A stretch of 64,000 nt of DNA from Firmicutes bacterium UBA3738 (GCA_002372505.1 DFGY01000062.1:28322-92321); one strand, 5' to 3'. Positions 27,648 through 44,471 are shown, counted from the stretch's first letter. Notes: generated by a model not told the origin, from the sequence alone. Numbers and translations are program-made.

Positions 27648-27785
27648 GAAAAACAGGGGTAATTAGGGGGTATATTATGGATTTCCGCCAAAATGAAAAA
27701 TCCTCGGAACGCTTGAATTTCCAAGGATTTTTTTATGGTCGGAGAGACAGGATTTGAACCTGCGGCCACCTGACCCCCAGTCAGG
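27648..27785 (-). repeat. att-like copy C: the 3' 50 nt of tRNA-Pro (27736-27785, identical) plus a copy of its terminator/flank
   Basis: 27736-27785 is identical to 44395-44444. 27648-27735 is near-identical to 44307-44394. Confidence 0.9.
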
Positions 27786-27821
27786 GTGAGACCGTCGTGA
27801 TTTCAATGCTTTCAGCGATTG

Positions 27822-27856
27822 TTTCCACCACGATTTCCACCACAGTTTCCACCACT
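27822..27856. repeat. Three direct repeats TTTCCACCAC (period 12-13), arm-type-site-like
   Basis: Copies at 27822-27831, 27834-27843 and 27847-27856, 36 nt right of core copy C. Confidence 0.8.
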
Positions 27857-28014
27857 AAATTTTTCCAAATGTATAAATATGCGCGATTCCGGATAGTGCA
27901 AAGCGATCTCTACATTAGCGATTTTAATAATATGCAGTAAACATCAGCTTACCAATTACACTAAGCATTCCATTTCTATTTCAAATACATATGAGTCGCT
28001 CATCAATATCTATA

Positions 28015-29640
28015 TTAAAATCTAAAGGGCTCTTTTTTACGACCAGCCGCAAAATCGATTTCTTCGAAAAGAGCGCGACATTTTTCATATTGCGATAGCT
28101 TCAGTTGTTCTATAACATCATCGACATATTTTTCACCATGTTCGAGTTTTATCAATCCCTTAATATACTCTGCTGCCTCATGATAGATTTTTCTGCTTTT
28201 TTCTCCAGTAAGCGAAGAAAAGAAACTATTTGTAAAAAACTTTTTCAATTCAGGCTCATACTTCTCTGCAAGAAAATCTACATTTCTTATTATTTCAAAT
28301 CGACTCCCTTTCTCATTAAGCAAATTGAACAGCTTTTCTTTTTCGTCAGTGAATCTATACAACGTTACCAGATGGCCAAGATTTTTCGTGAGCTTTTCTA
28401 TTCTTTTTTCACATTCTGATAACCAGCCTGCATCCTTTAAATGTTGCAGCGGAACTGTATCATTATTGTTCAGATAATCATATAAATAGTACTCTTTCAA
28501 GATTTCTTTATCACCACATTTTTCATACAACTTATTTAACAAGAATGGAATGTACTGTTTGTTGTATAGTGGTTTTTTATTTATTTCTTTCGATATGGCA
28601 CAATAAAGCCCTTTGACATCAGGTGCACTCTCTATGCAAAAGCAGATATACTCTTTGTACTTTGCATTTTTGATCATAGTACTTACCATGTCATCCATTT
28701 CGGGCTTTTCAATAATGCAAATTGCAATAAGCACATTTGATTTTGGGCACGTATTTCGAATCCCCATTGATTTCAAACGAGCGAACCGATCATTCAAACC
28801 GGTTACATATTGTTTCTTCTGTTCTTTGGATAAATGCTTTGATAAATGCTCTGCGATCCATCGATAATCATCATACACCGCCAGATCATCTTTCATGAAA
28901 AGTTCATTCAAATCGCTTCTATATTCTTTATTTCTCCATAGAGATGATATTTTTCTCTTTTCCACATCGCTTAGCATAGGCTGAGAATAGTCTTTCCATT
29001 CACTGTCATTATCTCTCTGTAGAAGGATCAAGCGAGAATTCAGTTTGTCTAATAGAACACTGGCTCCATTTTTATTGCCGATAAATTCTGAATACCTATG
29101 CTTCAGATATTTGTTGAAAGTCTCTTTTTTGTCTTTCATCAATTCAACACGAAGAATCATCCTTAATTCTTCCGGTGTCATATTGTCTAGAAAATCATCC
29201 AGTAGCTCATCATAATACAAAATGCCAAATCCTTCATTCAACAATTTTGTCAGAGAACTATTACAAATCCTGCTCTTATCCAGTGAATATTCCATTTCTC
29301 TTTCTTCTTCATAATAGTCATGGTTGGTCTCCCTGCAATCATCATAGTCTTCATAATAGTCAGCCTTTTCCGGAAAGGCGGCCATCCATAATGCTGCCAT
29401 ATGCTTGCACATATTTCCGCTTTCCGCATACGGACAATCACAACTGGATTTAAGTGGTTCATTTATTTTAATTGTCACTGAATAGGGCTTGTCTTCGCTT
29501 CCCTCAACCAGTCCTTTGTATTCATAAGTATCTGTTTGCTCTATTTCCAGCACAAAATCGCGAGAATAATAATCATATCCTCTGGCTACGATTCTTTCAT
29601 CAAAGTAACTCATATAGCTATTGACTTTTTCTTTGGTCAT
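28015..29640 (-). CDS. SWIM zinc-finger domain protein (541 aa)
   Basis: N-terminal CDCPYAESGNMCKHMAALW (CxCxnCxH SWIM signature). The rest is helical and K/E/Y-rich. RBS GGAGAG. Confidence 0.75.
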   Translation of the reverse strand: MTKEKVNSYMSYFDERIVARGYDYYSRDFVLEIEQTDTYEYKGLVEGSEDKPYSVTIKINEPLKSSCDCPYAESGNMCKHMAALWMAAFPEKADYYEDYDDCRETNHDYYEEEREMEYSLDKSRICNSSLTKLLNEGFGILYYDELLDDFLDNMTPEELRMILRVELMKDKKETFNKYLKHRYSEFIGNKNGASVLLDKLNSRLILLQRDNDSEWKDYSQPMLSDVEKRKISSLWRNKEYRSDLNELFMKDDLAVYDDYRWIAEHLSKHLSKEQKKQYVTGLNDRFARLKSMGIRNTCPKSNVLIAICIIEKPEMDDMVSTMIKNAKYKEYICFCIESAPDVKGLYCAISKEINKKPLYNKQYIPFLLNKLYEKCGDKEILKEYYLYDYLNNNDTVPLQHLKDAGWLSECEKRIEKLTKNLGHLVTLYRFTDEKEKLFNLLNEKGSRFEIIRNVDFLAEKYEPELKKFFTNSFFSSLTGEKSRKIYHEAAEYIKGLIKLEHGEKYVDDVIEQLKLSQYEKCRALFEEIDFAAGRKKEPFRF

Positions 29641-29664
29641 TTTTTCTCTCCAGAAGATTTGTTT

Positions 29665-30972
29665 TCAATCTTTCAAGCATCCTACAGGAATCACTTTTAC
29701 TCCATTTTCTGTTGTATAAGCCATTGGAGCATTCCCACATATTATGATAAGGAGCGATGGCTCTCGATATTCTATCCCCGGATGCGCTTCATTCAACCTG
29801 GCCTTTTCATTATGTTCACGTATAACCTTAGTAAATTTTATCAAGTTCTCTTCCGCTGCCGGCACAGCATTTGATCCTGTTTTTATTTCAATCAAGGCAT
29901 AACGCCCATCGTTTAACTGCAGTACTGCATCTGCCTCAAGCCCATTGCTGTCGCTATAATGCATCAGTCTGGCATCGTGTGCTTGTGCAAAAACAAGAAG
30001 GTCCCTAAGCACCATATTTTCGAAGGCATGACCAAACAAATCAAGATCATTATTAAAATAGTCCGGAGATACACCCAACGAAGCCAGCGCGATAGACGGA
30101 TCAATGAATATATGCTTCTTTGCAGCTCTAATCGATGTCTTTGAACGTATTTGTGGTGTCCATGCATCGATATCCTTTAATACGAATAATTTTTCAAGAG
30201 CTGTAATGTATGACGAAATTGTGACATCCGACATGTCATGATTTGACCGAACATCCGAATATATATTCTTTCTCTTCGCAAGTGTTGCCATATTTCTGGC
30301 ATAAGACCAAATAATCGTCCTAGCCCATTCCTGATTTCGTTTCACATCATCGATCGTACTAATATCCTTTAGATATATTTGTTTAAAATAATCTCTTGCA
30401 ATTTCAAGCTTTGACGCATCCGAAGAGAGCGCCAGGCATCTTGGCCAGCCACCCCTGCAGACCGCAAAAAACAACTCCTCTAACTTTGTATTACACTTCT
30501 GCCCATCAATAATAAAGTCTTCATCGTCAAACAGTTTCTTCAACGAAATCGAGCCATTCGATTCTCCTGTCTCATACAAGGTCATTGGATACATCATAAT
30601 ACTTGTAATCCTTCCGGTGCCTGTATGCGGTGTATCCACATCTTTGCTGGTTGAACCTGTAAGATAGTATTCCCCAACAGACTCCGGCTCATCATCACAA
30701 GCTTTTCTTATCGCGCCCCATATTTTAGGAGCATCTTGCCATTCATCAAAAAGAATTGGCTTTTCATTATTCAAAAATAGTTTGGGCGAGGTGTTTGCAA
30801 CAGCCAGATAGCCTTCTCTCCTTTCTTCGTCCTGAAACTCTATAATTGTCTTGCAGCGTTCCTGTGAAGTACGCGTCTTGCCGCATCCTTTTGGCCCAAT
30901 TATATTTATCGCATTAAACGCTTCTTTTTTCTTATCGATCTCTGAATCTACGATTCTTCGTATATAGTCCAT
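29665..30972 (-). CDS. AAA_14-type ATPase with a C-terminal DUF4143 (PD-(D/E)xK-like) domain
   Basis: Walker A GPKGCGKTR, Walker B ILFDEWQD, C-terminal DGRYALIEIKTGSN (D..ExK-like). Confidence 0.8.
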   Translation of the reverse strand: MDYIRRIVDSEIDKKKEAFNAINIIGPKGCGKTRTSQERCKTIIEFQDEERREGYLAVANTSPKLFLNNEKPILFDEWQDAPKIWGAIRKACDDEPESVGEYYLTGSTSKDVDTPHTGTGRITSIMMYPMTLYETGESNGSISLKKLFDDEDFIIDGQKCNTKLEELFFAVCRGGWPRCLALSSDASKLEIARDYFKQIYLKDISTIDDVKRNQEWARTIIWSYARNMATLAKRKNIYSDVRSNHDMSDVTISSYITALEKLFVLKDIDAWTPQIRSKTSIRAAKKHIFIDPSIALASLGVSPDYFNNDLDLFGHAFENMVLRDLLVFAQAHDARLMHYSDSNGLEADAVLQLNDGRYALIEIKTGSNAVPAAEENLIKFTKVIREHNEKARLNEAHPGIEYREPSLLIIICGNAPMAYTTENGVKVIPVGCLKD

Positions 30973-31035
30973 GCACTTTCATTCTCCCTTTCATATGTCT
31001 ATTATTCCACAGACAAGGCGAAACATCAAGTTGTG

Positions 31036-31106
31036 TTTTGTGTTTTTCGACTATTTTGTTTTGTGTTTTTCGACTATTTTGTTTTGCGTTTTTCGACTAT
31101 TTTATT
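31036..31106. repeat. Three tandem 23-bp direct repeats (TGTGTTTTTCGACTATTTTGTTT) upstream of the ATPase gene
   Basis: CGACTATTTT occurs at 31048, 31071 and 31094 (period 23). Confidence 0.85.
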
Positions 31107-31150
31107 TTGCAAGTTGTCAAAGTAGGTTTTCCAAGGATTATTGATGGCCT

Positions 31151-31252
31151 AAGAGACAGGATTGGCAGCCTGCGGCCACCTGACCCCCAGTCAGTACTTA
31201 GTTGCTTATTTTTCAATGGCTATACGGTTTATGGCAACCTATATGGCAACCT
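31151..31252 (-). repeat. att-like copy E: degenerate tRNA-Pro 3' fragment plus type-2 arm (TATGGCAACC x2)
   Basis: AAGAGACAGGATTGGCAGCCTGCGGCCACCTGACCCCCAGTCAG, followed by TACTTAGTTGCTTATTTTTCAATGGCTATACGGTTTATGGCAACCTATATGGCAACC. Confidence 0.8.
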
Positions 31253-31428
31253 AATAATTGACGGAATTATCAAATGCTTATTATGTTGATTATTATTGAA
31301 TTGACAGCATCCAAAATCAAATGATTCAAATTCAACCTATGCAAAATACACAAAGAGAACAAAAGGACATGGTACAAACAGTATTTCTATAAAGTGCGTT
31401 TACAAAAAAGTAAAATAGCATGACAGAA

Positions 31429-31464
31429 AAATGAGGCGGAAGTTTTTTCGGATCCGCCTCATTT
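31429..31464 (-). terminator. Rho-independent terminator of the membrane-protein gene
   Basis: AAATGAGGCGGA / TCCGCCTCATTT, a 12-bp stem, followed on the minus strand by a TTTTTCTG tract. Confidence 0.7.
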
Positions 31465-31524
31465 GCTTTTAAACTTAATAGTCGTTAATATGTCTCGCTG
31501 CAATGCGTCCTGTGCGGGTGCTGC

Positions 31525-32166
31525 TTACAGCATATTCTTTGTCTGACTCAGCACCTTAAGGAAAAGGATGTAAGCGATCACAGATACAACTGCGATAACG
31601 ATGGCGATTATACCTGCTATTACCACCATTTCTTTTGCACTTATGAATGCCAGTACGACTCCCAGCAGAATGGATACGACATACAGCGCCGTGATTAATT
31701 TTACCGTGCTGGAAGCCAGTTTTTCAACATGTTCATCTCCTACTCTCTTTGCCAGAAAACCGCAGCCCTGGATGATATATATGGTTACCATAAGGTTGCA
31801 GAAATTGCTAAGTACGCCGGTTATATCTTTTGCCATCTCGTTATTTCCAAAGAATCCGGCTACAAACGCAACTACCAGTCCGCCTATCAGAAAAGCCATT
31901 GCTTTTTTGAACTCGGGTTCTTCCTTGGATGCTCTGCTTATACCGACGACCTGGAATATGAAAGCTAAAACCACAGCAGCCAAGCCTAGTATCGCTACCA
32001 ATCCTATTCCGGCCATTCCGCCTTCTGTAATATTCGTTGCACCTCCGTTAGTAGCGGATATTACAATGATCACGCTTGAAACTGCTGCCAGAATAATCGC
32101 ACATATACTCAGGATCTCACCGATGTAGATCAATCCGACGCCTTTTTTTGCACTATTCAATTCCAT
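31525..32166 (-). CDS. Polytopic membrane protein (about 6 TM), unknown function
   Basis: Hydrophobic throughout. The ATG at 32166 with RBS AAGGAAG is preferred over the GTG at 32175. Confidence 0.7.
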   Translation of the reverse strand: MELNSAKKGVGLIYIGEILSICAIILAAVSSVIIVISATNGGATNITEGGMAGIGLVAILGLAAVVLAFIFQVVGISRASKEEPEFKKAMAFLIGGLVVAFVAGFFGNNEMAKDITGVLSNFCNLMVTIYIIQGCGFLAKRVGDEHVEKLASSTVKLITALYVVSILLGVVLAFISAKEMVVIAGIIAIVIAVVSVIAYILFLKVLSQTKNML

Positions 32167-32611
32167 TTTTACCACTTCCTTTTTTTTTCGTTATTTTCGA
32201 ATCCTTGATGCAGGCATTTAACGATGCCTTCAAACTCGTTTGATAGTTATATTTTATAATTCCACTAGTATTTTAACACATATTCTCTTCATTAGCCACT
32301 TCTTGTTGTTAGACGCTGCGGGAAAAAGGGAAATTTATCAAGTTAACACCAAAAGAAAAAAATGAAAAGAGCATTGACGGAATGAAGATATACACTGAAG
32401 AACAGGAGGTGCGTATGAATCGGTTGCACAACTTGCAGCTGCTTTTTCTTCGGTGGGGATCAAATGCCGGGATATCCACCATCCCAAACCACTCTTTTCG
32501 TCAAGAAACAGTAAAAAGTCAATTGCCCGAGTCATTTGACAATAAGAGAATTGCATTGATACAATATATTTTATATATGAATTAACAACAGCAGCGGAGG
32601 AGTTTTACGAT

Positions 32612-35600
32612 ATGAATGACACGAAAAATATAAGATGGCACTTGATACTGGTCGCCTTTGGTATTTTGCTGGGAGTGATGATCACGCTTCTTGGCGGTAT
32701 CACAGGATCTGTTGCTCATGCCGAAGATGGTGACAAAGCTGACCGCACGATCATCTATTATAATGATGGCGCTTCTTCCGAAGAAACCAATATGGCGTGC
32801 AGTGACATGCTGATGGAGGCGATGGCTGCCAAATTTGACAGCAAAAAGATCCGCTTTATTGTGATGACAGGAGGCTCCTTGAAATGGCATCTGGATCCCA
32901 GATATCTACGCGACAAGAATGGCGAAGCGGATAAGATCGATGCGATCAGCACCGAATACAATCAGGTCTGGGAGCTGTTCGGTGCCACTGATACCAGCGA
33001 AGGTTACATGAAATTGATCGATGGTGACGGCGTAACGGGCGTTGAAGTCAAGTCCGAAGATGAGCTGATGAATAATCCGAACACGTTAAAAACCTTCATC
33101 AATTTTGCGAAAAATTATGCTCCGGCTGAAAAATATGATCTTATCATGCTCGACCACGGCAGCGGTCCGGGACATGGTTATGGTTTGGATGACCATGATA
33201 CGGTAAATCCGAATAAAAAATTGCATGTCTATGAAATGCGTCAGGCTATTTCCGAGTGTGATGTGATTCAGCAAGGCGGGAAATTCGATATGATCTTTCT
33301 TGAGTGCTGCATGAACGGAAATTTTGAGACACTTCTTGCTCTGCAGGATTATGCGGACTATTTTATAGGCTCTCCTGATGTTGACCCCATAAATTCTGTG
33401 GAATATACGGACGTACTGAACTATCTGAATGAAAATCCTGCCATGGACGCGAAGTTACTTGGCAAAAAAATGGTGGATGTCTTCCATGATTATTTTGAAA
33501 GTCATATGGAGGAGAGATCCCTTGGCAAAGCTGTCCAATTATCCTTGGTTGACACGGCAAAGTTTAAGGATAGCGGGATCCTGAATCGAATGCAGCAAAT
33601 CGCCGAGACGCTGAGATCGGAGGCCGCCGGTAAAAGATTTTATGATGAGATCCGTTCCTCACAGGATGATTACAGAACATATTATAGTTATTTGCAGGAT
33701 ATGAGTACCCTGGCAGAGCAGCTGGGGATCAATATAAAGGAGTCTGATTTTCAGAATCCAGAAATGAAAAACAGTTATACGGATGATGCGATCCAGGTTC
33801 AAAACATATTAGGAGATACGGATGTCATCTATTCTAAATATACTAGCGATTCCAGGAAAGATGATGTGATATTCGGAAGAGACGAACAGGGAAAGATAAC
33901 AGTAAAAGTCGAAAAAAACCCGGCAGGCGGATTGAATATCTTTTTCCCAAACATGCACATGAGCAATATCCCCGCTGAAATAGTGCACTATATTGATGCA
34001 ATGAAGAAACTTGCAGACAAGTTGGCGGAGGATCCTAATGATGATCCTAAGGTCGAGGCTTTTATCACGACCTACAGGCAGGCAGTCATAGATTACGCGC
34101 TGATCTACGAGATCGGTACAGCTGTTTCCAATATCGTGGACAGCGAAGGTTATGACGGAACCGTTGATTTGAACAAAATCAGGGAATACTTCGAAGCAGA
34201 GGATCAAAAATTAGTGGACCAGGGATTAGAAAGCGAAAATCAATGGGGTTCGATCTCACATATCATCGATGAAAGTGATAGAAAAGATTCAGGGTGGCTT
34301 AACGAGATCATCGAGATCCAGAAGAAAGAAGTAATAAACCCAAAGAACGTTGCGATCCGGAAGACAGACAAGGATTATCTCATCGATATTACGAACACAC
34401 CTCAGAAGATCATCGGCGTTCCTGAGCTTCGTTTAAGCGCAAAGATATCGCATCAGTCTTCTGAAGAAGGATTTGATTTCTTGTATCCAGATCCACTGAT
34501 CGTATATACAGGCGAGCTGGCAGCGGATGCTATGCAGGACGTCAGCTCTTTTGAAGAATTTATTGGCGGAAATCATTCTGCTTACAGGGTCCCGCTGCAT
34601 GACGGGCAGTGGTATGCGGTAAAAGATTCTAATGGAAAAATACACCCTGCGAGCATCGCGTCAGATCGGTCGGTTTATGCAGCGTTTAAGTTTAAAGACG
34701 GCACAAATAAAGGTGGAGAGCTGCATTTTGACGCACAGGGGAAGGCAAAACATATTTATCTCGATGGTGATACAAAGCCCATCGACCTTGAGATCTACAA
34801 AGATCCCGTGAAAGTGACGCTGATGAATCACTCCAGTAATGCGGGAATGGTTTCCGGGGAATTTGAGATCAGCGGGACAAATTCCAGATTGGTAAGAGCA
34901 CCTTATAAAGATCTGAATATCAAATCTGTTGATGCCAAGCTGTATATCTGTGATATTTACGGAGTGGGACACGAGATCGCGCTTCCGGATTTCAGAACAA
35001 AGGCAACCATAACGACCGCGCCAGTCGGTAAGACCGGGCTGACTTACACAGGTAAGGCTCAGGCACTTGTCAAAGCAGGAAAAGCCAAAGGCGGCACGAT
35101 GCAGTACGCGCTTGGTAAAAATGCGAAGGACGCGCCGACTTCCGGATGGAGCGCATCCATACCGAAAGGAACAAAGGCCGGAACATATTACGTCTGGTAC
35201 AAGGTCGCAGGCGATAAGAACCATATCGATACTGTACCGAAATGTATCATAGTAAAGATCTCAAAAGCCATCACTAAAGTAACAGTCAATGCAAAGGCTG
35301 TCACTGCAAATACAGTAGCCAAGATGGTGGCAAAGGGCAAAAATGCCATGACCATTTCCTGGTCGGTGGTAAAGAATGCCGACGGATACGATGTGTTCTT
35401 CGCACGCTGCAACCACCACGGCAAGAAAATAAAAATGAAAAAGGTAAAGACCTTTAACAGCAACACGAAAACGAGCTACACAAAGAAAGGTCTTAAGAAA
35501 GGCGCATCTTACAAGGCTAAAGTCAGAGCCTTTGTCAAGGTAAAGGGCAAGAAAAAGTACATCATGACCAGCCCGGCAATGCACGCATTCGCAGGTAACG

Positions 35601-35887
35601 GAACAAAGAGATACACCAACGCTAAGAGCGTCAGTGTGAAGAAAAACAGCATCACACTGAAAAAGGGCAAGACCTACAAAATCAAAGCCACAGTGAAAAA
35701 AGCAAATAAAAACAAGAAACTCATGCCCGCGAAGCATATGAAGAAACTGCGCTACAGTAGCATGAACAAGAAAATAGCAACAGTTTCCAAGACCGGCATA
35801 ATAAAAGCCAAAGCCAAAGGCAAATGCATCATCTACGTTTACGCCCACAACGGCATCGGCAAACTGGTTAACGTAACAGTCAAGTAA
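32612..35887 (+). CDS. Secreted clostripain-like (peptidase C11) protein with a C-terminal lysine-rich Fn3-like + Big_2 module (1091 aa)
   Basis: Signal/TM segment. LDHGSGPGHGYGLDD (catalytic His region) and FLECCMNGN (catalytic Cys region). C-terminal MTISWSVVKNADGYDVFF and ATVSKTGIIKAKAKGKCIIYV. Confidence 0.8.
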   Translation: MNDTKNIRWHLILVAFGILLGVMITLLGGITGSVAHAEDGDKADRTIIYYNDGASSEETNMACSDMLMEAMAAKFDSKKIRFIVMTGGSLKWHLDPRYLRDKNGEADKIDAISTEYNQVWELFGATDTSEGYMKLIDGDGVTGVEVKSEDELMNNPNTLKTFINFAKNYAPAEKYDLIMLDHGSGPGHGYGLDDHDTVNPNKKLHVYEMRQAISECDVIQQGGKFDMIFLECCMNGNFETLLALQDYADYFIGSPDVDPINSVEYTDVLNYLNENPAMDAKLLGKKMVDVFHDYFESHMEERSLGKAVQLSLVDTAKFKDSGILNRMQQIAETLRSEAAGKRFYDEIRSSQDDYRTYYSYLQDMSTLAEQLGINIKESDFQNPEMKNSYTDDAIQVQNILGDTDVIYSKYTSDSRKDDVIFGRDEQGKITVKVEKNPAGGLNIFFPNMHMSNIPAEIVHYIDAMKKLADKLAEDPNDDPKVEAFITTYRQAVIDYALIYEIGTAVSNIVDSEGYDGTVDLNKIREYFEAEDQKLVDQGLESENQWGSISHIIDESDRKDSGWLNEIIEIQKKEVINPKNVAIRKTDKDYLIDITNTPQKIIGVPELRLSAKISHQSSEEGFDFLYPDPLIVYTGELAADAMQDVSSFEEFIGGNHSAYRVPLHDGQWYAVKDSNGKIHPASIASDRSVYAAFKFKDGTNKGGELHFDAQGKAKHIYLDGDTKPIDLEIYKDPVKVTLMNHSSNAGMVSGEFEISGTNSRLVRAPYKDLNIKSVDAKLYICDIYGVGHEIALPDFRTKATITTAPVGKTGLTYTGKAQALVKAGKAKGGTMQYALGKNAKDAPTSGWSASIPKGTKAGTYYVWYKVAGDKNHIDTVPKCIIVKISKAITKVTVNAKAVTANTVAKMVAKGKNAMTISWSVVKNADGYDVFFARCNHHGKKIKMKKVKTFNSNTKTSYTKKGLKKGASYKAKVRAFVKVKGKKKYIMTSPAMHAFAGNGTKRYTNAKSVSVKKNSITLKKGKTYKIKATVKKANKNKKLMPAKHMKKLRYSSMNKKIATVSKTGIIKAKAKGKCIIYVYAHNGIGKLVNVTVK

Positions 35888-35936
35888 TCAAAGGATGTAA
35901 TCAGTTGATTCAGAAATTAAAACTCAAAATCTAAAA

Positions 35937-35956
35937 CAGGACGCTTTCGCGTCCTG
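35937..35956 (+). terminator. Terminator of the clostripain-like gene
   Basis: CAGGACGC-TTTC-GCGTCCTG followed by CTTT. Confidence 0.65.
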
Positions 35957-35966
35957 CTTTAGATAT

Positions 35967-36145: not shown

Positions 36146-36187
36146 GTGTTTTCAGTCGAACAATACTCAAAACCTTGTCATATATAT

Positions 36188-36772
36188 TTATAAATTAATT
36201 CCGGTCAAGTCAGATATTTCGCTCTTATCCCAGTTTTCATTTTCCCAAAAGAAAAATTCTTCTTTTCTCTTCTTAAATATCCTGAACGGTTCATCTGTAT
36301 TATCATAAATATGCAGTACATCGCAAACCTTTATTAACTCTGGAATAAGCGCAAGTGACTTTTGATACCTGCTGCGAATCTTGTCTTCGGGAACACCATG
36401 ACCTCCGGATTGCTCTCTTGATTCCACACGGAAAACATTAATGCTGGGATCTGCAGTCAACACAAATATACAACGTACAAAATATCCTTGTTCCTTTGCT
36501 CTTTTGATAAGTTCTAAATTCCGTTCTGTAGACAAGACAGTTTCAAATGTAAAATCGATTCCCTGCTTTAGGGAATCCTCTCTTAATGATTCAGCAATCT
36601 TAGCAGCCTCAATATCGCTGCAATGTGTTGTTTTCTTTATTTCATCAGCATTAATATATGGCTCAATTATCTTTGCTAATTTAGTGATTGTAGTTTTTCC
36701 GCTTCCGTTGGGTCCGGCAAAAACAATCAACTCTGGACACTTCTGATTATTCGGCATATTTTCTGCTCCCAT
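36188..36772 (-). CDS. Zeta-toxin/PezT-family P-loop kinase
   Basis: Walker A GPNGSGKTT near the N-terminus; about 190 aa; overlaps a small upstream ORF. An alternative ATG lies at 36757. Confidence 0.7.
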   Translation of the reverse strand: MGAENMPNNQKCPELIVFAGPNGSGKTTITKLAKIIEPYINADEIKKTTHCSDIEAAKIAESLREDSLKQGIDFTFETVLSTERNLELIKRAKEQGYFVRCIFVLTADPSINVFRVESREQSGGHGVPEDKIRSRYQKSLALIPELIKVCDVLHIYDNTDEPFRIFKKRKEEFFFWENENWDKSEISDLTGINL

Positions 36773-36938
36773 CCGGGTATTCTAAATACGCCTTCTTTTT
36801 TTCCTTATCGTATCCGGCAATTGGTGCGCCTATGGCTCTTTTAATTTCGTTATCTATCTGAATCGCTTTTTTAAATCTTTCTGTTAGCTCATCATCTGAT
36901 ATTCCACACATGGAATCAAGTTCATTAGATTCATTCAT
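36747..36938 (-). CDS. Small acidic protein, putative cognate antitoxin (63 aa from the ATG at 36938)
   Basis: Overlaps the toxin start. GGAGGG RBS 7 nt before the ATG at 36938; the longest ORF extends to 36971. No family recognised; the call rests on position. Confidence 0.5.
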   Translation of the reverse strand: MNESNELDSMCGISDDELTERFKKAIQIDNEIKRAIGAPIAGYDKEKKKAYLEYPDGSRKYAE

Positions 36939-37051
36939 CTCGTTTCCCTCCATTACTTGATTATATAGCATTTATTTACCCTGCACAATTACTATGATTT
37001 AGAAACAAGCAAAAACCCTTGGAAAAAGTACATTTTTCAACGGTTTTATTC

Positions 37052-37158
37052 TGGTCGGAGAGACAGGATTTGAACCTGCGGCCACCTGACCTCCAGTCAG
37101 GTCTTGGCTGCTTATTTTTCAATGGCTGCACGGTTTATGGCAACCTATGTGGCAACCC
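37052..37158 (-). repeat. att-like copy D: tRNA-Pro 3' 50 nt (one mismatch) + type-2 arm
   Basis: 37052-37101 matches 44395-44444 except for the T at 37092. The arm TCTTGGCTGCTTATTTTTCAATGGCTGCACGGTTTATGGCAACCTATGTGGCAACCC follows. Confidence 0.9.
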
Positions 37159-37200
37159 GCCATGTTTGTGCAGATTGGAATATCCTTATATCAGGAATTG

Positions 37201-38934
37201 TCAACCGGCCAGCTGATTCTTGATTAGGCTCCTGTATACTTCATTACCTTTATACAGTTCGTCATGGGTGCCCATTCCAACTAGCCTTCCGTCATCCATA
37301 ACGATTATTCTGTCCGCCGACATGATGGTGGAAAGTCTATGGGCTATCATTACAACAGTCTTATCCTTTAGCTGCACTGCCAGTATCCTTTGCATGTACA
37401 GTTCATTTTCCGCATCGAGATTCGACACCGACTCATCCAGTATCACTATCGGTGCATCCCGAAGTAGCGTCCGTGCTATTGCAACTCTTTGCTTTTGGCC
37501 ACCTGACAGCTTGAATCCCCGCTCTCCGGTTACGGTGTCATAACCTTCCGGAAGTTCCATGATGAAGGTGTCTGCGTTAGCCTTCGCCGCAGCCTCTCTC
37601 ACTTCTTCCTCACTGGCCTCCGGGCGACCCAACCTGATGTTCTCGGCAATGCTGGTATGGAAGAGATATGTCTCCTGAGAAGCGGCGCTGACCATGTGTC
37701 TCAGCTCCGCAACACTGTACTCTCTTATGTCACTTCCGCCTATTGTTATGGCTCCCTCTACAGGATCCCAGTATCTCAGTATGAGATTTGCGCAGGTGCT
37801 CTTTCCCGCTCCGGAATGGCCTACCAGCACAACGGTTTCCCCGGGGACTATGTCAAAGGTCACATCGTGCAGAACGTCGGGGGAGCCGGCCTCGTAACAA
37901 AAGCGGACATTTTCAAATCCGATTCCCACGCTGCCTATATCCGCCTTCTTGCTACCTTCGTCCTTAATTGCAGGCTCTTCCTCCAGCAGATTTCTAACCC
38001 TGTTTGATGCCGCGAAAACCACTCCCAGTTCCTGAGCCACGGTGGTCAGTTCCAACACCGGTCCCAGTATTACCGTTGACAGCATTACCGCAACAGGATA
38101 CATCACCGTTTCCATTCTTCCGTTAACAACCAGCCAGGCAGACAGGATCATCACTGCAACGGTGAACAGTCCGCAGATTATCTGAGTCGCCATGGACTGG
38201 CCGCCCTTTAATCTGCCATATTTATACTGCTCTTTATATAGTCCATCCATGGAATCATTTATTTCTTTCATTCTGCGGCCTTCAGCCCCCAGCATCACCA
38301 GTTCTCTTATGCCCTGTATGCTCTCAACCATGATCACATTGGATTCAGCCAGGGACTCTCTTACACCGGCGCCCTGTTCCTCCGCTCTTTTTCCCATCTT
38401 GTACGGGACAGCCATCAGGCAAAGAGCGGCAGCAGCAACGAGAAGAGACAGCAGAGGATTAACAAACAACAGCGCTCCCATTATCAGAACCGTCAGCAAT
38501 ATGGCGATGAGGAAACTGCTGAAAGTATGGGCAAGAAATATTTCCAATATCTCCACATCCGCCACAAAGGCCTGGCCGATTTGACCGGTCTGTTTTCGCA
38601 GCGTGTATGCCGGGGCAATTTCCCCCAGTTTGTTATATATGTCAAGCCTGAAATTTCGGATTACTCTAAAAGCCACATCATGGGCAAAATACATTTCGCC
38701 AAAATGACCTGCCGCCCGCAGGAGAATGCAAAGAACCAGACCTCCCACCAGCAGACCGATGTTTTCCGGCTGTCCTTTCCCCACTACCATTCCGGCAATA
38801 TAGGAAGTAAGGCCGGCAATCCCAATTACGGATCCCTGCTTTAAAAAGGCGCTTATCATAGCCAGTGTCATCTCCCCGCTGTATGGCTTTATATTCCTGC
38901 AGAGATTTACTATGTTCTTTTTTCTATCGGACAT
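37201..38934 (-). CDS. ABC transporter, fused permease/ATP-binding (exporter-type half transporter)
   Basis: N-terminal 6-TM domain. Walker A GHSGAGKST, signature LSGGQKQR, Walker B IVILDE. Confidence 0.9.
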   Translation of the reverse strand: MSDRKKNIVNLCRNIKPYSGEMTLAMISAFLKQGSVIGIAGLTSYIAGMVVGKGQPENIGLLVGGLVLCILLRAAGHFGEMYFAHDVAFRVIRNFRLDIYNKLGEIAPAYTLRKQTGQIGQAFVADVEILEIFLAHTFSSFLIAILLTVLIMGALLFVNPLLSLLVAAAALCLMAVPYKMGKRAEEQGAGVRESLAESNVIMVESIQGIRELVMLGAEGRRMKEINDSMDGLYKEQYKYGRLKGGQSMATQIICGLFTVAVMILSAWLVVNGRMETVMYPVAVMLSTVILGPVLELTTVAQELGVVFAASNRVRNLLEEEPAIKDEGSKKADIGSVGIGFENVRFCYEAGSPDVLHDVTFDIVPGETVVLVGHSGAGKSTCANLILRYWDPVEGAITIGGSDIREYSVAELRHMVSAASQETYLFHTSIAENIRLGRPEASEEEVREAAAKANADTFIMELPEGYDTVTGERGFKLSGGQKQRVAIARTLLRDAPIVILDESVSNLDAENELYMQRILAVQLKDKTVVMIAHRLSTIMSADRIIVMDDGRLVGMGTHDELYKGNEVYRSLIKNQLAG

Positions 38935-40660
38935 TTTTAATCTCCTCCTGGGCTTTTACGAGTTCATGATATATGCCATCCGCGGCAATCAGCTCTTCGT
39001 GGGTTCCCTGCTCTGCCACCCTTCCGCCATCCATTACGATTATGTTGTCCGCATTTCGGATGGTGGATAATCTATGCGCAACGATTACAGCAGTCTTTCT
39101 TCCCGACAGCTCGTCGATGGCCGTCTGGATCAGCTTTTCGCTTTCAGCATCCACACTGGCTGTGGCTTCGTCAAAAATGAGAATCGGTGAATCTTTCAGT
39201 ATGGCTCTGGCTATGGATATTCTCTGGCGTTCGCCTCCGGAAATAGTGAGACCACGCTCACCCACTTCCGTGTTGTATCCCTCCGGAAGCTTTTGTATAA
39301 AATCATGAGCTCCGGCCATCACCGCCGCTTCTCTCACCTCTCTGTCCGTGGCCTCGGGGCGAGACATTCTGATGTTTTCAGCGATAGTTCCGTGGAACAA
39401 AAAAGTGTCCTGAAACACTGCGCCGATGCACCCTTGCATATATCCAAGACTATAGTCTCTCATGTCCATTCCGTTGATGGTTATTTTGCCTTCATCGGGA
39501 TCGTAGAATCTCATGATCAGACTTACAAGGGTGGATTTACCGCAGCCGGATCTGCCGACTATTGCTGTTTTGCTGCCGGCAGGTATTTTCAAAGAGACGT
39601 TTTTAAGAACATCCTCATTTCCCGTATATGAAAAAGAGACATTTTCAAGTTCAATTTCGGGCCTGTCTCCAATCCCAGATAAGGCCGCATCTGTCTTATC
39701 CTGGATTTCAGGTTCCGTGTCCATTAAGGCAAACAACCCTTCTGCAGTTGACAACCCCAAAAATGAGGAGTGCCAGTATCTGTTCAGATCAAACAGCGGG
39801 CGGGCACACTCAATGGTCAAAAAGAGGAATACGGTTATAGCCTGAGGCTCCATCATTCCCGCGTTCGCTCGCAGCGCCGCCACAACCACAGTCATGGAAG
39901 AAGTGACCGATGTCAGCACCAGCATTATGGATGCGTTTGACAGAGAAATCCCGGTGTTCTTTATGGATCTCTTCCAAAAAGAAGTCGCTTCCTTTGTCAG
40001 ATTCTCCCCCATGGTCTTTTCCGCATCAAGGGTTTTAAGTGTGGTTATTCCCTGCACTGCATCGATATACTGGGCCGTAAGCCTTGAATAGTCCGTCCAG
40101 TAATCGCCGATGTTTTTCTCAACTACAGGTATCGTCACAATAGGCACCAGAACGCATAGCACCATTGCAGCTATCAGAATCCATGATGTAACCCCATCAT
40201 ATCGAATCAAATAAAAGAATGAAAAAATTCCAACAGAAAGGACGGTAAAGACCTGGGGCACAAAGCTTACATAAAAGTGTTCCAAAGCCTCAACCCCGTC
40301 CAGCACCAGGGAAGTGAGTTCGCCGCTGCGGCGCTGATTCATCTGCCCCGGCCCAAGTCTGAACATGTGCTCAAGGACCTTCTTCCTTATTATCCCTTTT
40401 ATCTTCTGAGCCATGGTCTTTGTGTATGTCTCGCTCTTCATCATAAGAAGGCTCCTTATGATAATAGCCAGCACAACAACCACAAGGGAAGTTCCTATTT
40501 GTCTCATGTCCATCGAAGTGAACATGAGATTTACAACCCTTGCCATAAATACCGCTTGAGCAAGATAGGTAGCAGCAATTGCTATCCCCATCAAACTCTT
40601 TCCCGCTATTTCTCTTTTGATGTCGCTGAGAAAAGTCAGCAGTCTTACATACACATTCAT
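38924..40660 (-). CDS. ABC transporter, fused permease/ATP-binding (heterodimer partner)
   Basis: Walker A GRSGCGKST, signature ISGGERQR, Walker B ILIFDE. Overlaps the downstream partner by 11 nt. Confidence 0.9.
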   Translation of the reverse strand: MNVYVRLLTFLSDIKREIAGKSLMGIAIAATYLAQAVFMARVVNLMFTSMDMRQIGTSLVVVVLAIIIRSLLMMKSETYTKTMAQKIKGIIRKKVLEHMFRLGPGQMNQRRSGELTSLVLDGVEALEHFYVSFVPQVFTVLSVGIFSFFYLIRYDGVTSWILIAAMVLCVLVPIVTIPVVEKNIGDYWTDYSRLTAQYIDAVQGITTLKTLDAEKTMGENLTKEATSFWKRSIKNTGISLSNASIMLVLTSVTSSMTVVVAALRANAGMMEPQAITVFLFLTIECARPLFDLNRYWHSSFLGLSTAEGLFALMDTEPEIQDKTDAALSGIGDRPEIELENVSFSYTGNEDVLKNVSLKIPAGSKTAIVGRSGCGKSTLVSLIMRFYDPDEGKITINGMDMRDYSLGYMQGCIGAVFQDTFLFHGTIAENIRMSRPEATDREVREAAVMAGAHDFIQKLPEGYNTEVGERGLTISGGERQRISIARAILKDSPILIFDEATASVDAESEKLIQTAIDELSGRKTAVIVAHRLSTIRNADNIIVMDGGRVAEQGTHEELIAADGIYHELVKAQEEIKNVR

Positions 40661-40749
40661 TTAACCAAAATACCACAAACACAGAGACAACGGATGCCGT
40701 GAAGGCAGCATCCGTCATCATTAATAATGAACACTAATATTTGTTTACT

Positions 40750-41748
40750 CTATTCAAACAGGTCAGGATAGAATGCCTTTGCCAGTTTTTCAACAGTGTA
40801 TGCCATTCTGTCTCCCGGCAGAACGCTTTCCAGTTCTATTGTGGCAAACTTGTCCTTCTTTACGCAGTCAAGCTTTGACAAAACCGGGTTTGTTTTTATT
40901 TCCTTTTTCTTTTCTTCAACTGACGGTGAATCGTAGTCGTGGATGAGAATTACATCAGGCTCTCTCTTGATGGCTTCTTCATAGCTGACTGTGATCCAAT
41001 CCTTTTCAGTCTGATCTTCAAAGACATTCTTTCCGCCGGCAAGGCCGATAAGAAGTGTTTCAAAGTTTGTTCCGGAACATGTGAATACTCCATCGTTACC
41101 GCTGTCATATACCAGAACCTTAACGGGCTCCTGATCCTTAACCTTGTCTTCTACTGCCTTTATTCTGTCCTGCTGGCCCTTTATGAATTCTTCAGCCTTA
41201 TCTTCGATCTGGAAGATCTTGCCGATTGCGCGAATCTCTTCATACTGGTCTTCAAGACTCTTTGCCTGGTTAACCAGCACGTTCATTCCCTTCTTTTCAA
41301 CTTCTTCGATTACCAGGCCTTCTTCACCGATTTCCCAGTCAAGGGTATAGATAAAGTCCGCACCGGATGAGAGAATTGCCTCTCTTGTTGCTGATGAATG
41401 ATTCAGTTCTTTGATCTTATCAACTTCTTCTTTATATTCATCAAGAGGTCCTCTTGAGTGGTTAACAAGGGATCTGCCTATTACCTTGTCACCAAGGCCG
41501 AGAGCAACAAACAGTTCTGTACAGTTTGGTCCCAGTGTAAGAACCTTTTCAGGCATCTTTTCAACCACTACGTCTCTGTCGTAGTTCTTGACCTTTACAG
41601 GATATCCTGCCGCATCCCCTGCCGCAGAAGTGCTGGCTGAGCCGGCATCGGAGCTTGCCTTGTCTGCATCGCTGCCGCCACAGCCTGCAAATGTCATCAT
41701 GGCCATTGCAAGGCACATTATCAGTGCAATCAGTTTTCTTTTCTTCAT
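40750..41748 (-). CDS. ABC importer substrate-binding lipoprotein (Fe-siderophore/cobalamin type)
   Basis: Lipobox TFAGCGG. Size and neighbourhood (FecCD permease, FecE-like ATPase). Confidence 0.8.
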   Translation of the reverse strand: MKKRKLIALIMCLAMAMMTFAGCGGSDADKASSDAGSASTSAAGDAAGYPVKVKNYDRDVVVEKMPEKVLTLGPNCTELFVALGLGDKVIGRSLVNHSRGPLDEYKEEVDKIKELNHSSATREAILSSGADFIYTLDWEIGEEGLVIEEVEKKGMNVLVNQAKSLEDQYEEIRAIGKIFQIEDKAEEFIKGQQDRIKAVEDKVKDQEPVKVLVYDSGNDGVFTCSGTNFETLLIGLAGGKNVFEDQTEKDWITVSYEEAIKREPDVILIHDYDSPSVEEKKKEIKTNPVLSKLDCVKKDKFATIELESVLPGDRMAYTVEKLAKAFYPDLFE

Positions 41749-41815
41749 TCTTGTTACCTCTTTTTTGTCCTTTCTTCTTTAAAAATAATTGACTCTTATT
41801 TATAATTCAGCACAC

Positions 41816-42679
41816 TTAATGTGAATGTTCGTGCGCATCACCATCATGTTCATGCTCTATAGGCTGAGCCCAGTCATGTGCATGTTCTTCGGTATGACCC
41901 ATTCCACCTCTTTCTTTGTCCGGAATGAATGTGATGTTCAGCCGTCCGGTCTTTGAATTCATCTCTGTGGCACATTCAACTCCGTAGACTTCTTTAATTA
42001 TTTCCGGGGTGAGCACTTCCTCCGGCTTGCCCTCATAGCGCACCTGACCCTCGTCAAGGATATACAGTCTGTCGCAGTAAAGAGCCGCCATATTAAGATC
42101 GTGGATGGCTGCCAGCACCGTGGCATTTATGTGTCTGACGAAGTCGAATATCTGCATCTGGTAGCTGATGTCCAGATGATTCGTGGGCTCGTCCAGCACC
42201 AGAAAATCGCATTCCTGAGCCGTTGCTCTGGCGATTATCACTCGCTGCTTTTCACCGCCGGAAAGGTGCAGATAGTTTCTCTTTGCCATGTGCTCCATTC
42301 CAACATGAGCAAGGGCGTGTTTAATTATTTCCTTGTCTTCTTTTGTGTCGATGTCGAACATCCTTTTGTGAGGTGTTCTGCCCATGGCCACGATTTCCTC
42401 CACCTTGAAGTTAAAAGGAACATCGTTTTCCTGACCCACAACAGCCATTCTCAGCGCCGACTCTTTGTGGGTCATAGTCAGCAGATTCTCCCCGTCTATG
42501 ATTATCTCGCCTTTATCCGGCGTCAGGGCTCTGTAGACATTCTTGAGAAGTGTGGACTTGCCGCTGCCGTTTGGTCCGATGAGCCCAACGAACTCCCCTT
42601 CTCTGACCTGTATGGAGACATTGCTGATCGCATCCTTTTCCCCGTAGGAATAATCAAGATTTTTTACTTCCAATTTCAT
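41816..42679 (-). CDS. ABC importer ATP-binding protein (FecE/BtuD-like) with a His-rich C-terminal tail
   Basis: Walker A GPNGSGKST, signature LSGGEKQR, tail HTEEHAHDWAQPIEHEHDGDAHEHSH. Confidence 0.9.
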   Translation of the reverse strand: MKLEVKNLDYSYGEKDAISNVSIQVREGEFVGLIGPNGSGKSTLLKNVYRALTPDKGEIIIDGENLLTMTHKESALRMAVVGQENDVPFNFKVEEIVAMGRTPHKRMFDIDTKEDKEIIKHALAHVGMEHMAKRNYLHLSGGEKQRVIIARATAQECDFLVLDEPTNHLDISYQMQIFDFVRHINATVLAAIHDLNMAALYCDRLYILDEGQVRYEGKPEEVLTPEIIKEVYGVECATEMNSKTGRLNITFIPDKERGGMGHTEEHAHDWAQPIEHEHDGDAHEHSH

Positions 42680-42691
42680 GACTATCCCTCC

Positions 42692-43717
42692 TTACACAAG
42701 ACCCTTGTTACTGCGTCTTAACATATATATGAATATCGGGCCGCCGATGATGGCAGTGAGTATACCCACGGGAAGTTCCTCCGGCGCTATGATTATCCTG
42801 GCCACCGCATCAACCCAGATAACCAGGATCCCGCCGAGAAGCGCCGCTATGGGCAGCACTTTTCTATGATCCCCTCCTACAAGAAGCCGGGTGAAGTGCG
42901 GCACCATAAGACCTACAAAGCCAATGGTTCCGCTGACTGAAATGGTAACGCCGGCGATGAGAGAAGCCACCAAAACCAGTTCCTTTTGCATGCGCCTTAC
43001 ATTTACGCCCAGTGCTCCGGCACTTTCATCTCCCAAAAGCAGAAGATTGAGCCCTCTGTAATTCAGCATCAGCCATGTGATGCAAAGTGCAAGAATTATC
43101 AGTGGAAGTTTAAGGTATGCCCACTTGGCACCGGCCAGTGATCCGGACATCCAAAACTCCGCATTGTGCAGTCCCAGTGCATTTGGCGCCCCCAGTTTTA
43201 TGACGCTGGTTACGCCATCCATTATCATGGAGATAGCCACACCGGAAAGCAGCAGATACGTTACATTTATACGACCTCTGACTCTCGATAGAATATAGAC
43301 AAGTGTGATTGTAATGGCCGCGCCTATGAATGCGCTGATGGCCAGTCTGTATGTTCCAAAGAATGCGAATGCCCCAAAGAGCATGCACAGAGTTGCAAAG
43401 GCCGCAGCTCCTGATGATACGCCCAGAATAAATGGATCCGCCAGATTGTTTCTCACAAGTGCCTGCATGGTAACGCCGCAGACAGCGAGAGATGCGCCAA
43501 CAACCATTCCAAGACAGACTCTTGGCATTCTAAGGGTCCAGACCACATCCTCCGCCACCGGTTCCCAGTCATGAACAACACTGTCTGAAAGTCCGGGTAT
43601 GTGACTGATGAGTATCTTTGCAGTGGTTGCCGGATCCACGGAAACAGGCCCAATGCCCGTTGCCGTTAATATGGTAATAACACTCAAAATCATCAATAGG
43701 ATGACCACGAGTTTCAT
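42692..43717 (-). CDS. FecCD-family ABC importer permease
   Basis: Polytopic, with a typical FecCD C-terminus (GILTAIIGGPIFIYMLR). The start at MKLVVILL (43717) is preferred; the longest ORF reaches 43795. Confidence 0.85.
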   Translation of the reverse strand: MKLVVILLMILSVITILTATGIGPVSVDPATTAKILISHIPGLSDSVVHDWEPVAEDVVWTLRMPRVCLGMVVGASLAVCGVTMQALVRNNLADPFILGVSSGAAAFATLCMLFGAFAFFGTYRLAISAFIGAAITITLVYILSRVRGRINVTYLLLSGVAISMIMDGVTSVIKLGAPNALGLHNAEFWMSGSLAGAKWAYLKLPLIILALCITWLMLNYRGLNLLLLGDESAGALGVNVRRMQKELVLVASLIAGVTISVSGTIGFVGLMVPHFTRLLVGGDHRKVLPIAALLGGILVIWVDAVARIIIAPEELPVGILTAIIGGPIFIYMLRRSNKGLV

Positions 43718-44276
43718 CTTGACTTCACCGAATTCGTTTTTAAAAAAATTACTTTTCAAAGTTTGCCCCCTTATGCTTATCTCTCTTTGTACCATGCTAT
43801 TTTACACGGCTCTTCCGGATGAACAAGCCCCCCGGGGGGGTTATTGAAAGCAAAAACTCAATAGTTCAGATCTAATCTCTTCTTCCGTATCCCTTATTAT
43901 GTTCAACAGTTCCCCGGCGGAGATTCGCATGGCGCCTCTCATCCATGCATCCTGCTGTACCAGGCGGTCAGAGAAGACAACATATATTCGTCTATCTTTC
44001 TCGGCTTTCGCCATCTGCCCGATTTTCACATCAGCGAGTTCTCCTGCTGCAGTGTATATTGCATCCACGCCGGTATAGCTTTCCCTGCTGCCTTCTCCCG
44101 GCACCTTCTATCCCTTGTGATGTTATTCTAAAATTGCGATGCTTTTGAGCATATCTTCCCTTTGGCATAATCCTGTCATGAATAGCATCGAAAAATGGTA
44201 ATAGCGTGATATGAGCCGCCCGAGAAAACAGCATTCATGCAAAAAATGAATATATATTCATTACGGATTTCTGGAT

Positions 44277-44299
44277 TTTGCCACCTTATTTGCCACCAC
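44277..44299. repeat. Two direct repeats TTTGCCACC(AC), period 12, arm-type-site-like
   Basis: Copies at 44277-44285 and 44289-44299. The motif is nearly the same as TTTCCACCAC at 27822-27856. Confidence 0.75.
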
Positions 44300-44354
44300 G
44301 GTTAGGGAAAAACAGGGGTAATTAGGGGGTATATTATTGATTTCCGTCAAAAAG

Positions 44355-44391
44355 AAAAATCCTCGGAATGCTTGAACTTCCAAGGATTTTT
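44355..44391 (-). terminator. Terminator of tRNA-Pro
   Basis: Minus strand reads AAAAATCCTTGGAA-9 nt-TTCCGAGGATTTTT followed by CTTTTT. Confidence 0.75.
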
Positions 44392-44394
44392 TGC

Positions 44395-44471
44395 TGGTCG
44401 GAGAGACAGGATTTGAACCTGCGGCCACCTGACCCCCAGTCAGGTGCGCTACCAAACTGCGCCACTCCCCG
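44395..44471 (-). tRNA. tRNA-Pro (anticodon GGG), CCA encoded
   Basis: Folded by hand as a 77-nt cloverleaf. Acceptor CGGGGAG/CTCTCCG, D arm GCGC-AGTTTGGTA-GCGC, anticodon arm CCTGA-CTGGGGG-TCAGG, variable TGGCC, T arm GCAGG-TTCAAAT-CCTGT, then A-CCA. Confidence 0.92.

Follow-up and report, generated by a model that had tools for sequence, protein, structure and literature searches.

Evidence for tandem accretion of integrase-less cassettes at a tRNA-Pro(GGG) gene of a rumen Clostridia bacterium

We analyzed a 64,000-nt stretch of the Firmicutes bacterium UBA3738 genome (GCA_002372505.1 DFGY01000062.1:28322-92321; hereafter the window), in which four recombinase-less cassettes lie downstream of a tRNA-Pro(GGG) gene. 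The host is an uncultured rumen Clostridia bacterium. We concluded that the locus was probably formed by tandem accretion of tyrosine-integrase elements at this tRNA gene, and that these elements lost the integrase gene (int) and kept their attachment (att) sites. The result would be a row of cassettes of the type called cis-mobilizable elements (CIMEs), and these cassettes would turn over through an integrase acting in trans or through RecA. We place the probability of this reading at about 0.75, and hold the accretion origin itself with high confidence. The locus is a known kind of integration hotspot that matches the published concept of CIMEs and tandem accretion, and it offers a natural example of a tRNA hotspot that gathers and reshuffles accessory genes after integrase loss.

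ARAGORN and Rfam detected a single tRNA gene in the window, with the identity Pro(GGG). The 3' 50 nt of this gene (44395-44444) recurred in the same orientation with 0 mismatches at copy C, 1 at copy E and 2 at copy B (Table 1), and a degenerate copy, D, was 93% identical over 43 nt. Matches to the 50 nt in shuffled sequence numbered 0. An earlier note on this DNA had counted one intact tRNA and four 3'-half copies, and the count was borne out, with the tRNA half of copy B spanning 36039-36088. In every copy, identity to the tRNA extended no further than the 5' strand of its anticodon stem (CAGTCAGG), where foreign sequence took the place of the tRNA 5' half; at copies C and B it ran on through the tRNA 3' end into the terminator. 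The core motif of the tRNA half was CCTGACCCCCAGTCAGG. As the earlier note had also proposed, the segment downstream of the tRNA was duplicated at C and B, and all three versions folded into a terminator hairpin (tRNA, -17.4 kcal/mol, z -2.96; C, -15.9 kcal/mol; B, -12.9 kcal/mol). Copy E had a different hairpin at the terminator position, and copy D had no hairpin and retained 17 nt of the terminator segment. No sixth decayed copy of the tRNA half was found in the window, including the accessory region's left end (11.3 kb, 20.3 kb). A 17-nt reversed match (16/17) to part of the tRNA anticodon arm occurred at 11058-11074 in the Sua5 gene, near the GC boundary between core and accessory DNA; it is probably at chance level (E 0.03-0.1).

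Two classes of 10-nt repeats with a 12-nt period were present beside the copies, in agreement with what had been reported before. Exact occurrences in the window of the class-2 motif TATGGCAACC (also written GGTTGCCATA) were confined to pairs with a 12-nt period next to D, B or E, and the repeat at 37148, which differs from it by one mismatch, paired with the one at 37136. All three exact occurrences of the class-1 motif TTTCCACCAC (27822, 27834 and 27846) lay beside C. Near the intact tRNA, 118 nt from its 3' end, two repeats of TTTGCCACC (44277 and 44289) were found in a segment that we call S. Copies D, B and E had a common 58-nt right-hand arm ending in two TATGGCAACC repeats, and the arms of B and E were 98% identical. 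The arm of C was homologous to this arm, since TTTCAATG followed CAGTCAG by 16 nt in both. At copy C, segment S was deleted between 8-bp GAAAAACA repeats, with a loss of 157 bp. A tRNA core stood at both ends of every cassette, so that attL and attR were retained as in CIMEs. Every cassette had arm repeats on the Y side, whereas only class 1 had them on the S side. Repeats of the GTGGTGGAAA type flanked the tRNA half and terminator on both sides in one orientation for class 1 (C and S of the window, and the related loci L014 and L186), and not for class 2.

We scanned IMG/VR for TTTCCACCACNNTTTCCACCAC and obtained 94 loci. At 38 of these, a tyrosine integrase gene ended a few to ~270 nt from the class-1 motif, and these integrase genes were 65-100% identical to L031:6214-7359, which encodes a 381-amino-acid protein with PF00589, SAM_3 and Phage_int_M domains. 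Eight loci contained a whole attP, in which two TTTCCACCAC repeats were followed by ~100 nt with a terminator hairpin, a tRNA 3' half, ~60 nt, and two further TTTCCACCAC repeats over the int stop codon. The phage attP loci held half of another tRNA and no complete tRNA. Compared with the phage attP (L031:6214-7359, L044:11503-12615), the window had the same motif on both sides in the same orientation, with a terminator mimic and a tRNA half between, and similar spacing: in the phages, 127 nt separate the first arm from the tRNA 3' end and 109 nt separate that end from the second arm, against 118 and 84-86 nt in the window and sister strains. The two differ in that the phages target another tRNA and their int gene ends in the right-hand arm, whereas the window has cargo genes at that position.

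Because the class-1 repeats flank the terminator and tRNA half in phage attP and abut the 3' end of int, we assigned them to the arm-type sites of a phage tyrosine-integrase family, and the comparison supports the prediction that these 12-nt-period repeats behave as such sites. A specific arm motif, GTGGTGG(C)AAA with a 12-nt period, is thereby tied to a phage tyrosine-integrase family whose attP holds a terminator mimic and a tRNA half. A viral scan for TTTGCCACC pairs gave 51 loci that were mostly noise; the sole informative one, L150, had repeats of GGTGGCA, a TTTGCCACC variant, with a 12-nt period overlapping the stop codon of a second phage integrase. Accordingly, the proposal that the repeats are arm-type recombinase sites stood for class 1 and TTTGCCACC (phage attP, int 3' end), and was not supported for class 2, to which no integrase was linked. 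In both L031:6214-7359 and L150 (~12384-13166), the arm repeats fell within the last int codons and encoded glycine-rich tails, ending in GSGGKSGGNSKLA and GGTMGGKKGGK, respectively, before the stop codon.

Further viral scans returned 0 matches for the class-2 arm, 0 for the junction of half and arm, and 0 for the tRNA half. A scan for core plus arm gave a single match, which lay in coding sequence and was rejected as chance. A relaxed class-2 scan with ATGGCAACCNNNATGGCAACC gave 21 loci, where only L121 had an integrase beside the motif (GGTTGCCAT, three times); this is an ambiguous candidate, and the motif there is inverted relative to the tRNA piece.

Related loci were collected from JGI metagenomes with a pattern for the segment downstream of the tRNA, and from cluster members of the flanking proteins. 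Contigs L001-L003, which carry the exact flanking protein, were the same strain (99.995% identity) and added no information. The others, compared as the earlier note had recommended, showed presence/absence polymorphism with boundaries at the repeats: empty sites, different cassettes and re-ordered cassettes were all found. L012 and L185 had zero cassettes; there the block to the left of the array (block Z; window 22566-26682 and 27549-27655) ran straight into S, which was followed by the terminator and then by an intact tRNA. L014 had Z, S, terminator, half and class-1 arm, followed by a 7.5-kb cassette unknown to the window, with genes for a two-component system, a YhcG fragment, a 415-amino-acid protein, and HTH and Fic proteins, and no integrase. 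This cassette ended in a second S with two TTTCCACCAC repeats, a terminator and a tRNA end, so that half and arms bound it on both sides; a circle formed from it would therefore be a complete attP. In L186 the same Z/S/terminator/half/class-1-arm unit was followed by yet a different cassette, which carries an EndoU toxin. The arm of copy C was conserved to ~27902 relative to L014 and to 27963 relative to L186. L190 and L191 had cassette 1 (98.9% identical) with other neighbors: on one side a zeta-antitoxin-like gene lay beyond the half, and on the other a YhcG gene was found with no D copy. The half in these contigs carried D's T-arm variant. Contigs from further samples ended exactly at the repeat border. 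Altogether, across strains and two species, this one site was occupied by an older block and by no fewer than six different cassettes, all integrase-less. In L012 the tRNA (L012:6533-6609) had a Pro-type body with a G-to-T change that gives the anticodon GTG, and ARAGORN called it tRNA-His; either a mutation of the tRNA or an error in sequencing could account for the change.

In a related species, whose flanking synthetase was 69% identical, an element with genes for a 439-amino-acid integrase, a primase and an HTH protein lay 235 nt downstream of tRNA-Pro(GGG). This element brings its own terminator, and a sister strain had other DNA at that place. Among relatives at 70% identity, the P0004 species had a tRNA-Lys at the equivalent position, and P0002 had a tRNA-Pro with an integrase element of other layout and arms. 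In the related-species element (L009:15078-16632, compared with L008:15078-15400), the terminator hairpin was accompanied by other arm-like repeats, TTTGTATAATA twice and ACTGACRAA three times; its int gene faced the tRNA, and its att layout was unlike that of the phage family tied to class-1 arms.

Pfam searches of the main open reading frames (ORFs) of at least 120 amino acids across the window detected no tyrosine or serine recombinase domain, and tblastn with two integrases gave no match to the window. No recombinase gene was present in the 10 kb of source contig to the left either; that is, no integrase lies within 74 kb. The claim that the window holds no recombinase gene can thus be upheld and carried 10 kb further. 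The uncharacterized proteins (411 amino acids; 415 amino acids in L014; the SWIM protein of 541 amino acids; and 352, 340 and 210 amino acids) had no recombinase signature in Pfam, PHROGs or NCBIfam or by comparison with an integrase, and neither the 411-amino-acid protein nor the N-terminal 400 residues of the 683-amino-acid ATPase of block Z were similar to integrases. A search for integrase pseudogenes beside each arm matched the arm-encoded residues alone. Next to the C arm, a reading of 8-15 codons ending in IAHIYTFGKI and a stop is a questionable relic of an int C-terminus, suggestive and not significant. The absence of integration and transfer genes agrees with CIMEs, and the int gene that stands beside the att site in tRNA-gene islands was not found in the window.

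We propose the following route to this arrangement. Each incoming circle would have brought an attP made of arm repeats, a terminator mimic, the tRNA 3' half (the 3' end back as far as the anticodon stem-loop) and further arm repeats. Recombination, which we place in the anticodon stem-loop, would have regenerated the tRNA with an element-supplied terminator, and the same event would have moved the older elements, together with the displaced 3' half, farther downstream. All present elements (the four cassettes and the older Z) would have lost the integrase and kept their att junctions. Turnover could then follow either of two routes: recombination between any two direct-repeat cores, catalyzed by a cognate integrase that a phage or an integrative and conjugative element (ICE) provides in trans, or RecA-dependent recombination across repeats of 50-300 bp. 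Mobilization of the cassettes in trans at the present day is a tentative proposal, to which we give rather less than even odds. If it does occur, the cassettes would travel as minimal hitchhikers of phage integrases and offer a means of spreading defense and toxin-antitoxin genes in rumen Clostridia; otherwise, the locus amounts to a decayed island array of the ordinary kind.

Several observations weigh against the proposed accretion and turnover of CIME-type cassettes. Some cores were mutated: copy E had CCC changed to CTC in the anticodon, copy D had a damaged T-arm, and the L186 half had a stem change. These mutations look like drift and not like maintained function. The empty sites are not virgin attB sites, because S with its arm repeats was present in L012 and L185. 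One simple order of integration into an intact tRNA cannot yield the observed flanks; we gave up a single integration order because the flanks need extra deletions or recombination, such as the loss of S at C and the truncation of the D terminator. In the class-2 units (D, B and E), only one of the two sides of the core had arm repeats. Lastly, the genome and viral scans, whose representative genomes did not include the host species, revealed no cognate integrase for a tRNA-Pro(GGG) core with these arms, and no integrase linked to the class-2 motif TATGGCAACC.

The earlier note had further suggested that C and the intact tRNA, by their common arm motif, delimit an outer composite element enclosing E, B and D. 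This nested arrangement was not established, and the TTTGCCACC arms do not mark a composite element in this genome, as S with TTTGCCACC also occurred at the tRNA of strains with an empty site. The S next to the tRNA in the window is a diverged allele (~92%), and so may have come with another element.

The most serious alternative is that the array is a pure fossil, made of old prophages or islands that lost int together with most of their genes and whose att sites are inert, with the differences among strains produced by homologous recombination over the 50-300 bp repeats (deletion, Campbell-type insertion, or allelic replacement following DNA uptake) and by ordinary deletions. We consider this plausible, at somewhat under an even chance. 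It is consistent with the lack of an integrase within 74 kb, with the mutated cores of E, D and the L186 half, with the class-2 units that have no second arm, and with the marks of deletion at microhomology (S between GAAAAACA repeats; the truncated D terminator). Shuffling is also visible in the terminators, since the terminator of the L014 half was 99% identical to that of B and the right terminator of L014 was closest to that of C, and a D-like T-arm variant was common to copies at different positions. However, the arm repeats remained intact and their spacing conserved in at least six different integrase-less cassettes, copy C matched the tRNA at 50/50 positions, and the arms of B and E were nearly the same. 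The L014-only cassette, with arms on both sides and a circle that would be a complete attP, also argues against inert sites. The earlier note had left the choice between CIMEs and a fossil array; the CIME label fits (att kept, int lost, polymorphic junctions), and activity in trans and a fossil state are both plausible.

A bolder extension is that the tRNA-Pro(GGG) site may serve as an exchange platform at the level of the population, where a pool of small integrase-less cassettes, each with the arm sites by which its circular form would be a complete attP, circulates among strains and even species through the integrase of a temperate-phage family acting in trans. We regard this as unlikely, with roughly the chance of one in four. 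If true, the platform would be a tRNA-based analogue of the integron, or the cassettes would be phage satellites reduced to att sites and cargo.

An integron-like platform proper, in which a fixed host recombinase beside the array shuffles promoterless cassettes via tRNA-derived sites, is very improbable. The cassettes are recombinase-less and include a toxin-antitoxin pair, block Z is always at one end, and the genes beside the right-hand arms all lie on the minus strand, their stop codons ~40-270 nt away from the repeats, all of which such a platform would share. However, neither flank carries an intI-like or other recombinase gene, so that the intI/attI/Pc arrangement is missing; the repeated units are of attP type with direct arm repeats, and not attC hairpins; the cassettes are multigene and of mixed orientation; and block Z is itself horizontally mobile, with proteins (the 411-amino-acid protein and the N-terminus of the 683-amino-acid ATPase) unlike integrases.

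Finally, the tRNA 3' region might have been duplicated locally in tandem, or a dispersed repeat of a generic kind might by chance lie between unrelated genes. Nothing speaks for this reading beyond the repetition itself, and it can be dismissed, as the copies are always 3' halves that end at the anticodon stem, in one orientation downstream, with a foreign arm in place of the 5' half, and related strains precisely lack the intervening DNA. The patterns for the class-2 arm and for the junction of half and arm had 0 matches in 185,579 species-representative genomes (the host species is not among these), and in JGI metagenomes the pattern GGGGGTATATTATNGATTTCCG for the downstream segment was found on three contigs, solely at this locus. 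The possibility that the repeats would turn up at many unrelated loci, raised in the earlier note as a refutation, was therefore not realized.

In staphylococci, the staphylococcal cassette chromosome (SCC) and pseudo-SCC arrays at rlmH (orfX) consist of cassettes between repeated integration sites, some without a recombinase, which is then supplied in trans. Unlike the window array, SCC arrays depend on serine recombinases (Ccr), have a protein-coding target gene and contain no arm-type sites. The accretion of CIME-type cassettes proposed here also resembles the CIMEs of the ICESt1/ICESt3 family of Streptococcus, for which tandem accretion and composite excision are described in PMC5704250 (citing Pavlovic 2004 and Bellanger 2011). 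As set out there, those CIMEs likewise have lost int and transfer genes, kept attL and attR, and occupy the 3' end of the target gene as tandem units, with the integrase of a related element proposed for mobilization (PMC5704250). The window differs in having no helper ICE, integrative and mobilizable element or phage at the site or within 74 kb, and in having a row of four to five units that all lack an integrase. Its arm motif also points to a phage integrase family and not to an ICE, and cis-mobilization is here predicted only.

The island arrays at ssrA in Dehalococcoides resemble the window in that tandem islands lie downstream of one small-RNA gene, are separated by direct repeats of its 3' end, and vary in number among strains; of the 31 islands, only 16 have an integration module (PMC3146451). 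In contrast, the ssrA arrays use the serine recombinase DsiB, a 20-bp repeat and the T-loop of the transfer-messenger RNA (PMC3146451), whereas the window has a 50-nt repeat, a terminator and arm-type repeats, typical of tyrosine integrases, and its crossover would lie in the anticodon stem-loop. With classical tRNA-gene islands and prophages of the Islander type, the window shares the regenerated tRNA, the displaced 3' fragment and the anticodon-loop sublocation (PMC4383910). The integrase gene that defines such islands (PMC4383910) is missing from every unit in the window.

The features of the locus are listed in Table 1.

Table 1. Positions of the tRNA gene, its 3'-half copies, the flanking segments, the cassettes and block Z in the window.
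Feature	Position	Strand	Content
Block Z	20326-27655	.	HipA-like protein, variable 411-amino-acid protein, WYL regulator, 683-amino-acid AAA+ ATPase, zinc-finger duplicate ORF
Copy C	27648-27902	-	Terminator 27648-27735; tRNA half 27736-27785, identical to the tRNA; class-1 arm TTTCCACCAC x3 at 27822-27855
Cassette 1 (C to D)	27903-31128	-	SWIM-domain protein 28015-29640 (541 amino acids); AAA_14/DUF4143 ATPase 29665-30972
Copy D	31129-31253	-	Degenerate half ~31152-31194; T-arm variant GGCTGCCAATCC; class-2 arm TATGGCAACC at 31230 and 31242
Cassette 2 (D to B)	31254-35966	mixed	Membrane protein 31525-32175 (-); C11 peptidase 32612-35887 (+)
Copy B	35967-36146	-	Terminator-like segment 35967-36038; tRNA half 36039-36088; class-2 arm TATGGCAACC at 36123 and 36135
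Cassette 3 (B to E, 1 kb)	36147-37051	-	Zeta-toxin-like P-loop kinase 36188-36772; overlapping 74-amino-acid putative antitoxin 36747-36971
Copy E	37052-37159	-	tRNA half 37052-37101, 1 anticodon mismatch (CCC to CTC); class-2 arm TATGGCAACC at 37136, TGTGGCAACC at 37148
Cassette 4 (E to tRNA)	37160-44149	-	ABC exporters 37201-38934 and 38924-40660; Peripla_BP_2 binding protein 40750-41748; ABC ATPase 41816-42679; FecCD permease 42692-43795; truncated YacP/NYN fragment 43841-44104
Segment S	44150-44307	-	Two arm-type repeats TTTGCCACC; same place in L012, L014, L185 and L186, ~92% identity
Segment downstream of tRNA	44308-44394	-	Intrinsic-terminator hairpin ~44355-44391 and T run; P'-side of the att unit; duplicated at C and B
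Intact tRNA-Pro(GGG)	44395-44471	-	ARAGORN; Rfam RF00005, 63.8 bits; integration target, regenerated; right end of the array

The cassettes contained 2-6 genes each, in mixed orientation, and the genes adjoining the arms in the window encode the SWIM protein, the membrane protein, the zeta toxin and an ABC exporter. The cargo comprises defense candidates, a toxin-antitoxin pair, a secreted peptidase and ABC transporters. In cassette 1, the AAA_14/DUF4143 ATPase matched the PADLOC defense candidate PDC-S01 (E 2e-57). A 23-nt tandem repeat (3.3 copies, 96% identity) at 31034-31109 lies upstream of the AAA_14/DUF4143 gene; it is kept in L190 and L191, where it follows the YhcG nuclease gene and not copy D. 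The peptidase of cassette 2 is a 1091-amino-acid protein of the clostripain C11 family with fn3 and Big_2 domains. The truncated YacP-like NYN ORF, at the inner end of cassette 4 where it adjoins S, is 87 amino acids long and aligns to positions 61-138 of a 166-position profile.

Core genes for an acyl-CoA synthetase, FtsW and a penicillin-binding protein (PBP) follow on the right-hand side of the tRNA. To the left of C, accessory DNA (HipA-like, WYL regulator, AAA+ ATPase, PcfJ-like) extends to ~11.3 kb, followed by core genes for Sua5, RpiB, Upp and TyrRS. Between Sua5 and block Z (11398-20048) there were genes for secreted proteins with CAP and Big_2 domains, a PcfJ-like protein and a DUF6994 protein, and several ORFs without matches; no att-like boundary was found in this interval.

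Block Z in other strains runs directly into S, the terminator and the tRNA. Window 22566-27655 and L185:457-5002 were 94-98% identical across this block (WYL, 683-amino-acid ATPase, zinc-finger ORF, S, terminator). L185 belongs to another species: its core FtsW and PBP genes were 68-74% identical, and the AMP-binding and 2-oxoacid_dh genes were missing from the contig. Because block identity was so high despite the low core identity, we concluded that block Z was itself horizontally moved as an integrase-less unit ending in S. Its left limit at 20326 is tentative, resting only on the end of homology to the HipA-like module in L187 and L188, and homology to L185 and L186 begins at 22566.

Within block Z, an 866-bp segment (26683-27548) with two small ORFs of 92 and 210 amino acids and no family matches was absent in L012, L014, L185 and L186, and so constitutes an indel. 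A 159-nt tandem duplication (26317-26609; 1.8 copies, 81%) falls in the ORF at 26220-26642, and each copy gave a weak match to a YgiT-type zinc finger. The HipA-like gene (20326-21409), a PADLOC candidate (PDC-M03A), was 93.6% identical to L187:8886-9969, which has an unrelated context of metabolic genes and no tRNA nearby. Diverged sequence stood in L012 in place of the 411-amino-acid ORF beside it. Judged by these alignments, the HipA-like gene and its neighbor look like a separately mobile, variable module.

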